This document shows, in pieces, positions 1 through 62,479 of a stretch of 64,000 nucleotides of DNA. Source of the DNA: Haliotis cracherodii. Its lineage: Eukaryota. Below the pieces are notes generated by a model. That model was given only the letters and a program-made list of their open reading frames with translations, was not told the origin of the DNA and did no database searches. The stretch spans positions 54,436,001 to 54,500,000 of the forward strand of contig NW_027266343.1 of assembly GCF_022045235.1 (NCBI RefSeq), given 5' to 3'. The position numbers were made by a program, and so were the translations under genes. The first letter of the stretch is position 1. Each line of letters starts with the position of its first letter.

Positions 1-822
1 AAAGCATTCATGAAACATGAAACAGATATCTCTTTCCAACAACCAGAGCCGATGCAAATGTTTCCTGCACAATGTTTGAAACATGTGACCTTTGTATGTT
101 TATAGTGTCTGTAAGAAGACAGTCATAAGTCTAGATCCTTCTCATTGAAGAACTTGTTGAAGTTCCGCATCAGATAAAGCACACAAACAATTGAAAGTAC
201 CATGTTCTTGTAAGCATCTGTCTTGTATGGGCCCCAGATGAGACTGTGTAAACAGAAGCATTGTTACCTACGTAATTGGAATAAACACCTCGCACATGTA
301 AACACTACCCCGATCCCGGCCACTGTTTGTAGCAGCTGAACTCATAGATAGGGATTGCGATCTCGACATGTGTCATTGAAACTAACATTGATGTACAGAT
401 AGGCAGACGTGATCATCTTAAGAGCAGACGTACATTGTCAGAGATCACCTTCAGATAAAATGGCACTGCAGACATATTACATTGCATCAAATCGTAACCA
501 CTGACGTCCCATGATAAACCGAGGCTTGCCGTCAATCTCAGAGGTTAGACATGAAATCATGAATATTCTTATCAGTTCTGATCTCACATGAAATCCATGT
601 TCTTTTGATTGATAATTAAATTTTTGTTTCAATTCTGGAATAGAATTTGTTGTGAATCTACTACAGCAACTAATTGATGATGGTTGCTAGGGACAGCCGC
701 AGGCACTGTTCATGTGGTCAGTGAAGGTGCACAAATCAAGTTGTGAGGGGAATGTTATTTTTTCATTAGCAAATGTTTTTGTTAGTCTATCCCCAAAAGG
801 AAAACACCTAGATGCTCCTGAT

Positions 823-1060
823 GAGAGAGTGAGTGAGTGAGTGAAAAAGAGAGCAAGACAGAGACAGAGTGAGCGAGTGAGAAAGAGAGAGAGAGCAAGA
901 CAGAATGAGTGAGAGAGAGACTGCAAGACAGTGAGTGAGTGAGTGAGTAAGCAAGTGATAGAAAGAGAGAATGGTCTTATGCTACTTTCAGCAATATTCC
1001 AACCATATCACATCGAGGGACACCATACTTGGGCTTCACACATTGTAGGGAATTGTCACC
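823..1060 (-). mobile_element. GA/GAGT-rich microsatellite plus 3' part of tRNA-derived SINE family 1
   Basis: gcaatattcc...gggcttcacacattgta is shared with the 47222-47391 copy. Confidence 0.6.
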
Positions 1061-1592
1061 GAACATCATTTTGTAAACATTCACATTTCTCAAAGTGTAT
1101 TTCCCTCCTACCAACAGACAGTCATAGTGTCAAATACCACCTCACATAAACTGTTTGCCAGCCATCATTTCACTGCCTCAGCTTCATGTACATGATTTAT
1201 TTGCTTATTGACGGACATCTTCATATAGATCATTGAAAAACATATCATAACTTTGAAACAAATCCATATGGAGTTTAATACAAATAATAAAACTAGTAAA
1301 TACTAAATTAACACCTTAAACTCATCAGCCTGCAACAAACTTTCAGAAATTCAGGATATCTATCTGTATCAAAATTTCAGAAAGATTTTCTCTCTTATTA
1401 TTACTGTTTCAATGAATGTTTCCCCGTTTGTTTTTTTTACAAACAATATGAATAAAAGTGGCAAAACCTTTTCAATATTCAATAGAAATCTCTGCTCGAT
1501 TGTATGATTCCAACTATATCATGAGCATGTGTTTAAAATCACTATGAAATGGTGATGATACCACAAACACATGCAAAGGCAAGTCAATTATT

Positions 1593-2010
1593 TCACCTGA
1601 AAAAAAACCAGGCGATCATTTGGTACAAGTCAAAATAGGGAATTGTATCAGACATAACTTTTGTCACTGATGTGTCAGATTTGGAAATGTCCTCCACATG
1701 TCTGTTATAAAACGTTTTGAAAGCTTCACTGAGACTTTGAATGTTGTAAATTTGATCAAACAAATTCTGAGCAATAGTTATATGACGCTCTTTGAAATCT
1801 TGGTAGAAAGAGCATGCTTGAGTGTATCTCAAAAGTTGTGAAATGTAAACACCAAAGGCTGGAGCTTCTGCAATATTGCTTGTCATGAAGGGAAAACTGA
1901 CTGGTGGAAAGTTGAAGTCACCCCTCTTGTCATACAGTCTTGTGGAGAGTGTTTTGTCACTCTGAATCTTTATGCATACATCTAATATGAAACAGATGAG
2001 GCGGTGAAAG
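1593..2010 (-). mobile_element. Penelope-like retroelement, RT C-terminal/thumb remnant (may extend, degraded, towards ~2960)
   Basis: LSTRLYDKRGDFNFPPVSFPFMTSNIAEAPAFGVYISQLLRYTQACS...FKTFYNRH matches the YDKRDDFNF...SNIP...YGVYISQLIRY motif of invertebrate PLE RTs. Confidence 0.8.
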
Positions 2011-2968
2011 CGAGGAATAGACACAACAGCTGTTCACACTCAGCAGCCGAAACATAATATGTAATACACAATAAGCAATATGTAACATGTAACATATAAT
2101 ACAAGTAAAAAAACTCAGGAAAAAGGGGAAAAAGATAAACACAAGAGAAAGTGATTGTTTTTTCCATCACACCTAAGATTGTCGGCACATCAAAGAATGT
2201 AGTATTGGCCATACAACTAACCCTGTCTTTTGAACTGACTGTGAGGATAGGCGGTGTCTTGTACAAAACCCACAGCATCATATGGAACAACAGAAGACTT
2301 GTATGTTTCGATGTTGTGAGAGAAAATGTCATGTACGTGTTTGGCAGGTCAAATCAGCGCCGGTGCACTGGAGCCAGTCTGAGAAGCAGGTGGGTAGGGA
2401 GGCAGACACATGCAACATGTCCTCCTTCATGGAAACGTTCTTCCAGTATCAAGAGCCTCCTAAAACAAGCTCACTTCCTTCCTAGAACAATACAATGTTC
2501 CTTTTTACAAAACTTTGCATTTTTTGCTTCAAGAATTGGCACCTTATGAGATTTTTATGCACTTCAATTTCTGGCAAGGCTGATATCCACTTGTGACGAC
2601 ATAAGAGAGCCACTCAAGGCATGTCTGTAAATTGCACAGAATAAGATCCCACCTCCCATAAAGAAACATCAGCATGATATAAACAGCAGTTTTATGTTGG
2701 AGGAGAATTTCTTTGAGATTCTATGGATTTTGATGTAAAGGTCATCCTGAACTAATTTAATCTCTGTCAATGACATTACCGTTTTCATGCAAGAAAAGTA
2801 AGAAAATATTTAATAACAGAACATTTGGTTATTCTTGTCAAACAATGGGATATGTCATCACGTGACCTCTGAAGGTGTCCTTTTCACTTGTAAGTGCATT
2901 CAACATGAAAATATGAAGTTTAATGTCAGGTCTGTCGATGAGACAAGATTGGTAATACATGGAGGATA

Positions 2969-59459: not shown

Positions 59460-59745
59460 TATATTGGAGCATTGGTCCTTGTTATATGGGTATGATGACA
59501 CGATGCTGGCCAGGTTACAGCTGAGAACCAGACACATACTAGTGCTGCTATACTCGTCAGCCATATTGGCCATCTAATCACCAATTTAATTACCCGATCC
59601 ATCAAGCATAGAAACATGGAACCTGTTCTCCTGAGGAACTGAAAAGTCAGCCATTTTGAAGTAGAAAGCCAAGGGTTGATACTCTGCATTTGAATCTTTC
59701 TCCTATTTTATTAATCATAAATGCTTCACAACCATAGGTAAATTC

Positions 59746-60026
59746 AGTGAGTGAGTGAGTTGGGTTTAACACCGCTTTTAACAGTATTCCAGTTATATCG
59801 CGGCATGTAAGCTTAATGTGGGAGGAAAGCCTGAATTGATGCAGATCTCAGACATTTACCACTTCGGTTAAATCCACGGGTATGGTGCTAATAATAACAT
59901 AATAATAAACATAATCAGGGTGAACCGGCTAACGAACCAACAATCATAGGTTTCTGGCGTTCCCAAGGGAAGCAACTCTGCATTGTGAAATGCAGCGCCT
60001 TAGAAGACTGGGCCATCCTTGACCCC
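59746..60026 (-). mobile_element. Family 3 (tRNA-Leu-like) SINE
   Basis: Minus strand starts GGGGTCAAGGATGGCCCAGTCTTCTAAGGCGC (compare tRNA-Leu GTCAGGATGGCCGAGTGGTCTAAGGCGC); (ACTC)n tail. Confidence 0.85.
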
Positions 60027-61704
60027 ATAGGTAATTTGAAGAAATCCTGGCTAGATTACATCCTGACTCTTATACCAGGAACATAAATATAATATAAGAC
60101 TCAAAAGAAGTAGACAGCCAAAGGACATATTAACTATAGTCACATAAAAAAAGCGTGTCTTCTATAACTTTTCTTGAGTAGTATATTACCCAAAGTGGGG
60201 AAAAACAAGAGGAATCTACTTTTTAACAATGTTAGAAGTTTTACATATATATTTGTTTATCTATTTATTTATTTACTTATTTACACATAACATGGGGCAT
60301 ATAAGCTGTATTCCCAGTAGTTTGAGTTTATTCTCTACACATTACTCTGCTTGCATTTACAGAATTGTAGATATGTTTTCCATATTTATAGTCCAGTCAA
60401 TGGGGATACATTATAAGATAATACCCGATTATACAACAATGTATTACAGATGACACAATAGCTCCATCAAACTGGAAACATACATACAGGGTACTAACAT
60501 TTAACTGCAAGGATACCACCTGACGAAAGAATGTTTCAGAAGAGGGTCAATTTAAAGCTTATGGTAATGCCAAACAGACTCATTAGGAGTGCTTCTCTAA
60601 GCCTAATGTACTTTCGGTAAGCCCGATGGCGCCATTGGACTGGTCACCTCACCACAGGGTAGGGTAGACAGATGAAGGTTCATGCAGGTTGGAGCATAGG
60701 CTTCCTGAGTCTCTCTATCACTAAAGACTCACGGGAGCCGAGTAATCTTATTACTTTACAGAAGGACGACAGAGTCATCAATTATAATGACACTCATCCA
60801 CTCGGGTCGCCCGGTCGCCCGGTCGCCGTTGTGAGGGACAGAGGCAGGTCCGAAATGGCAAATCAATCCCTTCATCATAAAACATGTCAGGGAATCTTCA
60901 CGGACTAATGTTTCGAGGCATGCAAACATAAGATACCCCATCAGTTTTATGCAGATTCCACGATAACCATGAATCATGCTGATTAAGTTTAGTCTTTAAC
61001 TTAAAAAATTTAAAAACTTGAAATCCATAATTTTGTAGCTGGAGAATGAATGTGTAATATTTCAGTGTGATAATGTTCCTTGATGTATGGCAGAGGGTCT
61101 GGAACATCAGAGGGAGGGGAAATTGTTTAGCCTCACAGTCGAATATTGAAAAAATACGATTAATCATTCTTAAGGCTGTCGTTCTTGCTGCCTTGAGGAT
61201 TGCCAAATTTGTAAGAGGGCTTTGAGATTTGAGTCAACAGATGAGAGGCTGATAGAGGCTGAGATACTTTCATGTACGAAGAAAAACATACAAGAGCAAA
61301 TGAATGCATGCTGGGATATCTGAAATTCCACAATCATCAAAATAGGCTAGTGCTGTGTAAACGTTCACAATTTCTCCTCTGAGGAATCGGTCTACTTTTC
61401 GTAATAATTCTTCAGCATATTCACTAAGGCAGCACCCAACACAGTACCAAATATTGGAAGGCAGAGTAGAAATCGAAAATCATATAATCTTTGAACTGTT
61501 TGCATACACGCTTCAATTTGCGTTGTTTAAACACTCTTGCAAGGGCTTGGGCTGACAATTGATTCTCCTCTGTGTAAACGGAATCATCCATCTCCTCAAT
61601 GTCTTATTCCACAAGGAAACACGGACCATGACACTACCCAAAAGATGTACGCTGATGTGTTACTGCTGGGAATCAATAATGATGGACATGTTGCACCTTC
61701 ATCA

Positions 61705-62002
61705 CCAGGCAGCAAGGAACACATACAGTGGTCCACTATTCAAAGATGCCTTCATCACCAGACATGTGGGGTATCAAACCCGGACCTTCAGGTTGATGGG
61801 TAAACACTCTAACCACTGGACCACCCCTCCACTCCCAGGCACCAAGGAATGCATACAGCGGTCCACCATTTAAAGATGCCTTCATCACCAGACATGTGGG
61901 GATCAAACCCGGACCTTCAGGTTGAAGGGTAAAAACTTTAACCACTGGGCCACCCCACTCTTCCCAGGCACCAAGAAATGCATACAATGGTCCACTATTC
62001 AC
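61705..62002 (-). repeat. 130-bp tandem duplication (about 2.3 units), each containing a tRNA-like SINE head
   Basis: agatgccttcatcaccagacatgtgggg at 61744 and 61874. Confidence 0.85.
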
Positions 62003-62479
62003 AGGTGGCTCTGCTGGAATCCTAATTTTCTGTTAGAACAGGAGTGAGTGAATATTGTTTTAAGACAGTCAGCAATATTACTGCTATGTCATGATAGCCT
62101 GTATATAATAATGTCTTGACCACGCGACTGACAGCATGAACAATGACACATACTGTTTAGGTATGACGACACACTATACACCCATCCTTGTAGAAAGTAA
62201 ACTGATGTCTTTCTCATATGTCAAACACTACAAACAAGCATCAGCCATGGAATATTTATTCTTGCTTATAATCACAACCCAATCAAATAGTATTTTTTAA
62301 ATTAAGAACAAAAATAGGTCCAGCAGTGACTGTCAGGAGCTGTTGATATGTCAACATTAAAGTTTTATTGCTGATTATTAGGATGGTTTCAGTCCTGGCT
62401 GATTAATGTCAACACAGTTGATTAATTCACCCAACAACATAAACATTGGAAGGGCACGCATCACTCTGGGCACTACAGA

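Follow-up and report, generated by a model that had tools for sequence, protein, structure and literature searches.

In the abalone Haliotis cracherodii, short interspersed elements (SINEs) of four families lie predominantly sense to transcription in one class of genes, those poor in CpG, where 261 of 325 copies (80%; 61 genes, on both strands) have this orientation. The polarity is pronounced in the window analyzed here, the 64,000-nucleotide (nt) stretch at positions 54,436,001 to 54,500,000 of contig NW_027266343.1 (assembly GCF_022045235.1), which contains a minus-strand coding exon of a KChIP gene. We hold, with a probability of about one half, that this polarity is set when SINEs insert into genes that are likely active in the germ line, and not by selection against splice donors in antisense copies. 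Window coordinates take 54,436,001 as position 1, and negative values lie below the window.

Profile hidden Markov models (HMMs) of the four families (A to D), built from copies in and around the window and applied with a 25-bit cut, find 33 copies on the minus strand and 1 on the plus strand (minus:plus, A, 12:0; B, 11:0; C, 8:1; D, 2:0). Inclusion of a family B fragment just below the cut (23 bits) gives 33:2, i.e., 33 of 35 sense to KChIP (P = 4e-8 against 50%), and a higher cut of 60 bits leaves the polarity standing at 21:1. All 29 runs of (GAGT)3 or longer are on the plus strand and none is on the minus strand, with 14 of the 29 supplied by a compound tract at 3656-4307; GTGAGT occurs 173 times versus 9 for ACTCAC, and (GTTT)3 or longer occurs 6 times versus 0 for (AAAC)3 or longer. 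A sequence-only reading of the window had counted about 30 minus-strand copies of four families against about 2 on the plus strand, at 5560 and ~43340-43780, both with short or decayed tails, and had placed every long (GAGT)n tract on the plus strand, all of which the HMM and repeat counts bear out: the family C copy is cut at its 3' end, and the family B fragment is small with a decayed tail. The same reading had called the bias extreme; the bias is real, but its extremeness is partly an effect of the window, a high stretch of its minus-strand domain (P = 0.02 against 80%), since the whole sampled domain has 116 of 144 copies sense (81%), matching other CpG-poor genes.

All four families fit the criteria for SINEs, being 156 to 347 nt long, non-coding and in high copy number, with a simple-repeat 3' tail and target-site duplications of variable length (8 to 17 nt, flanking 126 of 255 full-length copies). 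Family A (156 nt) has a tRNA-like head and an (ACTC)n tail; family B (256 nt) has no tRNA-type head and ends in (AAAC)n or (CAAC)n; family C (270 nt) ends in (ACTC)n; family D (347 nt) has an internal (CA)n and a (CACCT)n tail; and they have only a terminal motif in common. An exact 35-mer of family A has 16,432 matches in the 1.18-Gb genome, and the motif is strand-neutral genome-wide (8210:8222), as expected. Family B is likely the Haliotis LP-SINE (Hdi_LP), which it matches by description and length (256 nt versus a consensus of 255 bp), and family D is likely the Haliotis MESC SINE, which it matches by description (internal (CA)n and terminal (CACCT)n) and not by published sequence (passages of PMC4758252). 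A 9-mer from the family B head had no match in the searched supplements of that paper, and the word "orientation" is absent from its main text. The names HaSE1-3, considered for the abalone SINEs, belong to insect elements and were dropped.

Features of the window are given below; SINE copies were called by HMM except where a score is stated, and tracts were called by repeat count.

967-1047, minus: SINE A, 3' half
4668-4994, minus: SINE D, full length
5236-5320, minus: SINE C fragment
5560-5768, plus: SINE C, antisense to KChIP, without 3' end
6158-6415, minus: SINE B, full length
12984-13254, minus: SINE D, without 3' end
13674-13783, minus: SINE A
14774-14840, minus: SINE A head
18443-19652, minus: SINE C, 3' end (18443-18510) and body (19430-19652), with a 38-bp minisatellite from its own sequence in between
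20780-21034, minus: SINE B, full length, then (ACTC)17
21333-21442, minus: SINE A, decayed
22306-22494, minus: SINE B
23209-23354, minus: SINE A
23665-23812, minus: SINE A
25372-25636, minus: SINE C, full length
31806-32083, minus: SINE C, full length
33903-34100, minus: SINE B, 5'-truncated
34436-34673, minus: SINE A, two pieces counted once, 58 nt below the exon's donor
34916-34977, minus: SINE A fragment, 60 nt above the exon's acceptor
38625-38872, minus: SINE B, full length
40248-40501, minus: SINE B, full length, (AAAC)6 tail
43708-43780, plus: 3' fragment of SINE B with a short decayed tail, antisense to KChIP; at 23 bits it falls under the counting cut
46709-46787, minus: SINE C 3' fragment
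46835-47049, minus: SINE B, tandem pieces counted once
47083-47391, minus: SINE A, of which 47236-47391 is a young full copy flanked by a target-site duplication; its neighbor is decayed
48410-48498, minus: SINE C fragment
48722-48851, minus: SINE A, decayed
48980-49158, minus: SINE B, decayed
53845-53929, minus: SINE A, decayed
58332-58420, minus: SINE B 3' fragment
59203-59457, minus: SINE B, full length
59757-60026, minus: SINE C, full length
61763-61958, minus: SINE A heads in a 129-bp tandem repeat, counted once
62056-62172, minus: SINE B, decayed
3656-4307, plus: compound (GAGT)n tract interrupted by an N run; the pre-mRNA reads it as (ACUC)n
12763-12832, plus: (GAGT)n tract
20698-20778, plus: (GAGT)17 tract
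35259-35322, plus: (GAGT)15 tract
53606-53641, plus: (GAGT)8 tract
827, 933, 14535, 18423, 21037, 23645, 47220, 53719 and 59749, plus: shorter (GAGT)n runs
34732-34856, minus: KChIP coding exon, 125 nt, with AG and GT at its ends (PDB match; covered and spliced in RNA-like contigs)
1-34731, minus: KChIP intron, 38.5 kb, extending to the exon at -3783 (exon map and contigs)
41496-41611, minus: candidate for an alternative first exon, with an ATG and 38 codons that keep phase with the exon after it; predicted from sequence
34857-64000, minus: likely interior of the KChIP transcription unit (observed/expected CpG ratio [CpG o/e] of 0.36-0.52, minus-strand T>A and G>C skew, SINE polarity)

Several repeats stand beside these copies. 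A minisatellite at 18509-19475 has a 38-bp unit derived from family C; a near-identical minus-strand pair of about 220 nt (14551-14770 and 21037-21260), with a family-C-like 3' end and an (ACTC)n tail, was not counted by HMM; and the family B head is repeated in tandem about 80 times at -60.3 to -56.4 kb (L037-L038). A further family, E, was considered as a SINE, rejected as a long terminal repeat (LTR) element, and excluded from the SINE counts: its copy at 57336-57735 (minus strand) has two 160-nt LTRs with a tRNA-like box, which flank a 90-nt interior that starts with a site resembling a primer-binding site, a single LTR piece lies at 36453-36555 (plus strand), and a second two-LTR copy lies near 128.5 kb. 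By this layout family E is a miniature LTR retrotransposon similar to Helenus (PMC10886601), with a 4-bp target duplication that is not clean; the words "Haliotis" and "gastropod" are absent from the text of that paper.

The identity of the host gene rests on the frame at 34732-34854 (minus strand), which matches KChIP4, calsenilin and KChIP1/2 in the PDB, with KChIP1-4 above NCS-1 (best E = 5.7e-10 for KChIP4 versus 0.006 for NCS-1). Five further KChIP exons lie on the minus strand below the window, at about -3.8, -8.7, -9.5, -10.6 and -11.1 kb, with a stop near -11.2 kb; the EF-hand core is full, in order and on one strand, and one splice junction is seen in contigs of RNA-like runs. In four such runs, presumed to be RNA, contigs cover exactly 34731-34857, and in two runs they continue from the 34.8-kb exon into the exon at -3783, 38.5 kb away, so that positions 1-34731 are intron. 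The candidate exon at 41496-41611 has no cover in the four runs, which does not count against it, and one contig of run X3 links the 34.8-kb exon to an upstream exon that differs from this candidate. A search of the window, the 100 kb that follow it and eight more samples gave no match of at least 11 letters to the X3 upstream exon, nor did a pattern search of the genome find it at 1 or 3 mismatches.

Both the bias and the CpG o/e change at the 3' end of KChIP. SINE copies below the gene (-12 to -100 kb) number 19:24 (sense:antisense), those from -10.7 to +164 kb number 78:21, and the repeat-masked CpG o/e steps at -20 kb from 0.76-0.89 below to 0.27-0.52 above. The sequence-only reading had stated that the bias continues above 41.6 kb, and it does, with 38 of 45 copies sense (38:7) in eight 8-kb samples up to window coordinate 422 kb. 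These far upstream samples have a CpG o/e of 0.32-0.45 and a minus-strand excess of T, mostly of G too, and every sample from 54,500,001 to 54,858,000 (window coordinates 64-422 kb) is CpG-poor, minus-skewed and SINE-polarized. From the polarity we predict a minus-strand unit that exceeds 430 kb and is likely single, perhaps KChIP, with several genes in a row also possible; the first exon of KChIP is predicted to lie more than 100 kb above the window. Below the gene, at -40.3 to -37.0 kb (L038-L039), frames on both strands presumably encode a Tc1/mariner-like transposase, judging by their motifs.

Beyond KChIP, gene strand was assigned by Pfam exon matches in the genome, and 80 genes were sampled in 100 stretches of at most 10 kb. 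The non-genic control consisted of one 88-kb flank and 20 spacer stretches within tandem arrays of intronless receptor genes; 90 loci around intronless kinases, channels and kinesins (L052-L141) were left out of scoring. The CpG o/e cut of 0.6 was picked after the data were seen. The 80% sense fraction of CpG-poor genes has a gene-level bootstrap interval of 75-85%, and the 59 genes that have copies show no overdispersion (P = 0.12), compared with 73 of 127 copies in 19 CpG-rich genes (P = 3e-6), 48 of 96 in SLC6 introns, and 55 of 134 (55:79) in non-genic DNA, where the slight antisense lean has a P of 0.047 and tandem duplication may account for 11 of the 91 spacer copies. Sense copies make up 175 of 227 in plus-strand genes and 161 of 229 in minus-strand genes, and 62 of the 78 genes with copies have a sense majority, 11 an antisense majority and 5 a tie. 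By class, in a tally that includes four family E copies, the counts are 127:24 for kinesins, 82:20 for dyneins, 35:10 for myosins, 43:18 for channels, 1:0 for one kinase, 48:48 for SLC6 transporters and 36:55 for spacers; 3' extensions past the last matched kinesin exon, tallied apart, give 48:14. A cluster of more than 12 myosin paralogs on both strands (C12, 64.59-64.96 Mb) would be a natural site at which to look for polarity flips at gene borders.

Within CpG-poor genes the split is 60:22 for family A, 98:28 for B, 70:9 for C and 33:5 for D, and the sense fraction falls as CpG o/e rises (Spearman coefficient, -0.41; P = 0.001; 60 genes with 3 or more copies), from 88% through 82% and 74% to 54% across four bins. 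The strand of (GAGT)/(ACTC) tracts gives the right direction in 26 of the 29 CpG-poor genes with a call (32 of 61 have no call) and in 6 of 10 CpG-rich genes. The proposal that repeat polarity correlates with gene strand is supported in the sampled genes on both strands, with no sense bias in non-genic controls, and the proposal that the GAGT strand marks the direction of transcription holds for CpG-poor genes; the tracts of SLC6 number 8:9. Total density is about 5 copies per 10 kb in all classes (sense plus antisense, 4.14 + 0.78 in kinesins, 4.1 + 1.0 in dyneins, 2.48 + 2.48 in SLC6, 1.8 + 2.75 in spacers and 2.16 + 2.73 in the downstream flank), such that the sense share is raised about 1.65-fold at constant total density. 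Masked densities (per 10 kb, 8.3 in CpG-poor genes, 9.0 in SLC6, 9.2 in the KChIP unit, 6.5 downstream and 5.5 in spacers) were set aside, the mask being contaminated by repeat-derived hits.

How such a polarity might arise at insertion can be outlined tentatively. Target-primed reverse transcription yields a sense copy when the first nick falls on the template strand, and heritable loss of CpG reflects methylation in the germ line. The machinery of a long interspersed element (LINE) may sense germline transcription and insert SINEs sense-first by way of the template strand, in which case polarity would be a fossil map of germline-transcribed genes and their extents, here KChIP over more than 430 kb. 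In genes that germ cells likely transcribe, most priming of reverse transcription would come from the template strand, which could be exposed by transcription itself or by a co-moving replication fork; the four families would share one LINE partner, as their common 3' end suggests, and the CpG-poor genes would be those active in the germ line. On top of this, a weaker process likely purges pre-mRNAs of long (GAGU)n runs and perhaps also of old antisense copies, and it is in this second layer that the splice-donor idea fits.

The bias is flat with age, at 33:9, 65:19, 42:13 and 46:13 for copies with 0-3, 3-6, 6-10 and 10-15% non-CpG divergence, and copies with target-site duplications number 47:14. 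Copies that are 5' truncated and lack the head are at least as biased (44:5), and therefore a head-on promoter is not needed and a head-on promoter clash is ruled out. Target-site composition was rejected as a cause, since it predicts only 50-53% sense, and so was the exclusion of inverted pairs, which is too weak and directionless (82 direct and 69 inverted same-family neighbors in unbiased DNA). The densities point, though weakly, to sense copies being raised and not just antisense copies being lowered.

The sequence-only reading had ascribed the polarity to purifying selection against tandem GUGAGU, the 5' splice-site consensus, which antisense tails would place in the pre-mRNA; in family D the cryptic donor would be GAGGUGAG. 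As the main cause this is largely refuted, and very unlikely, because family B is as biased without a donor: 98:28 versus 163:36 for A, C and D (P = 0.39), and 59:19 among B copies with an intact 3' end and no donor motif. Copies without any GTRAG on the antisense strand are also polarized (113:32), antisense survivors of families A and C hold 2.9 donor motifs versus the 2.45 that sense copies would, and the tail-bearing family A is the least biased (73%), although the bias of C and D, the highest of the four (89% and 87%), speaks for the model. SLC6 introns are spliced yet unpolarized in both copies and tracts, and single GTGAGT motifs outside SINEs in CpG-poor genes number 129:130, real donors included. 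The tandem repeat makes a weak donor, since TGA/GTGAGTGA binds the 5' end of U1 with -6.5 kcal/mol, compared with -14 for the consensus; the antisense tail of family D pairs at -10.2 kcal/mol, which speaks for donor selection and means that D is not a donor-free control. U1 binding in introns can also be protective, through telescripting (passages of PMC5499120). What donor avoidance can explain is at most the long (GAGU)n tracts: among perfect tracts of 5 or more units, the sense strand of genes carries 44 (ACTC) and 3 (GAGT), with 6:0 in CpG-rich genes, whereas non-genic DNA has 1:3 (P = 0.004; against 80%, P = 0.009). A fifth SINE, described below, has its donor on the sense strand and is mostly antisense (6:17, P = 0.03), again in the direction of donor selection. 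For SINE polarity in general, transcription-coupled insertion, which the same reading had offered as its alternative, fits better.

Selection of a more general kind, acting on antisense copies in broadly expressed genes into which SINEs insert at random in direction but more often, is possible but on balance unlikely. Its cost would be common to all families: the pre-mRNA might pair with sense SINE RNA, present in abundance, or antisense copies might bring in cryptic acceptors, 3'-end signals or GU/U-rich sites for protein binding. Such selection accounts for the independence of the bias from family, tail and distance. No effect of exon distance is seen (123:26 within 500 nt versus 46:10 beyond 1 kb; P = 1.0, on an incomplete exon map made by paralog tblastx), and KChIP copies more than 5 kb from any known exon number 26:1, whereas mammalian SINE effects on splicing are limited to ~100-200 nt from exons (passages of PMC3088655). 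SINE-bearing RNA looks highly abundant, with a summed contig depth of 5,000-30,000 over family A pieces versus 18-70 on the exon, a depth and not a measure of expression, and CpG-poor genes in oyster are housekeeping genes (passages of PMC2996979), which should face stronger selection. The greater bias of the oldest copies (P = 0.02) and the 2.8-fold-higher density of DNA-type repeats in CpG-poor regions, which makes a higher insertion rate plausible, also favor it. It requires, however, that a raised rate and subsequent loss cancel to ~5 per 10 kb in all classes and that survival be equal in 59 different genes, and the splice sites give it little: apart from one family B site, antisense survivors have lost candidate AG and GT sites no more often. 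Antisense A copies keep both candidate acceptor AGs (24/25 and 23/24 intact), and the one family B site that is lower in antisense copies (21/34 versus 84/104; P = 0.04, one of 8 sites) shows the same drop in unbiased controls. Replication offers another route, if in long active genes the forks travel in the direction of transcription and one of the replication templates is preferred by the LINE endonuclease. It yields the same pattern as polarity set at insertion by transcription in every test run, a dip to 39:21 over 64-164 kb within the CpG-poor domain could mark a change of fork direction, and human L1 and Alu have a weak replicative asymmetry of 0.52 (passages of PMC7797064). We nevertheless consider it very unlikely, as the bias ends at the KChIP 3' end and non-genic stretches have no local co-orientation, their different-family neighbors being 191 direct and 207 inverted, unlike long fork domains.

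Several results weigh against the view that polarity is set at insertion. Across all sampled stretches, DNA-type repeats of ten families reach a density in CpG-poor genes about 2.8 times that in CpG-rich or non-genic DNA (155 in 945 kb versus 30 in 510 kb); insertion rates are thus not uniform, more insertion followed by antisense loss can mimic the density pattern, and the argument from density carries little weight. Copies of the oldest bin show a stronger bias (70:8, 90%, versus 186:54; P = 0.02), and long tracts in CpG-poor genes stand at 22:1, above 80% (P = 0.04), both as selection predicts. Strong selection would look flat with age too, because it acts faster than the age bins resolve, and no new or polymorphic insertions are observed in the single assembly. 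KChIP and the Nav/Cav channels are usually neuronal, and their presumed germline activity is here read from CpG as a proxy. That proxy is imperfect: CpG-rich kinesins (11:1), myosins (12:1) and dyneins (4:1) are still biased (27:3), the CpG contrast leans largely on SLC6, with nonsignificant contrasts within classes (P = 0.11 and 0.13), and the strand skews do not follow the bias (P = 0.80 and 0.42). The precedent of human L1 has the opposite sign, with repair removing sense intermediates (38% sense; passages of PMC5717806). Finally, a fifth SINE with another tail and a perfect GT donor on its sense strand leans antisense in CpG-poor genes (4:9) and elsewhere (2:8), a pattern equally compatible with donor selection and with a different LINE partner.

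This fifth SINE, found at L228:7205-7458 and in 22 other places (6:17 sense:antisense), has what we take to be a V-SINE-like core and an L2-type tail. Fourteen other repeat families (5-24 copies each in CpG-poor regions) had no significant orientation bias (P = 0.06 or more).

The orientation of retroposons is a standard test of selection against insertion mechanism, and a sense fraction of 80% that disappears throughout one gene family and in non-genic DNA gives a far larger signal than the 42-47% of mammals. If it is made at insertion, it would point to a transcription-sensing LINE endonuclease or host factor, with a sign opposite to that of human repair. In practice, polarity is a cheap aid to annotation, giving gene direction in CpG-poor genes with a tract call and flagging missing upstream exons. 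Our literature search, which left most subscription journals outside its coverage, found no earlier report of a strong sense bias of SINEs in a mollusc. Bivalve SINEs gather in genic regions, as abalone SINEs lie in or near genes, and "antisense" does not occur in the passages of that study, which hold no strand analysis (PMC11481361).

Among the systems described in passages of the papers cited here, the human L1 bias arises at insertion through transcription-coupled repair (Servant et al. 2017, PMC5717806), and the abalone bias is like it in that retroposon orientation is tied to gene strand, plausibly without selection. Unlike L1, whose weaker bias was established with de novo insertions and repair mutants, the abalone elements are strongly sense, and the insertion stage is deduced from genomic copies; the abalone bias may work in a similar manner but is not that mechanism as described, since sense is favored here. 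Mammalian SINEs lean slightly antisense (41.6% sense among mouse SINE variants, PMC3446317; 0.471 sense in human, PMC7797064), whereas abalone SINEs are strongly sense and in a gene subset only. The sense excess of human Alu near exons, which results from selection against antisense cryptic acceptors (PMC3088655), has the same sign as the abalone bias and comes closest to the donor model, but it is confined to 20-200 nt from exons, whereas the abalone bias is equal at all distances and includes donor-free copies. Orientation bias of intronic retroposons is thus already known, and the abalone case is larger, opposite in sign and specific to a class of genes.

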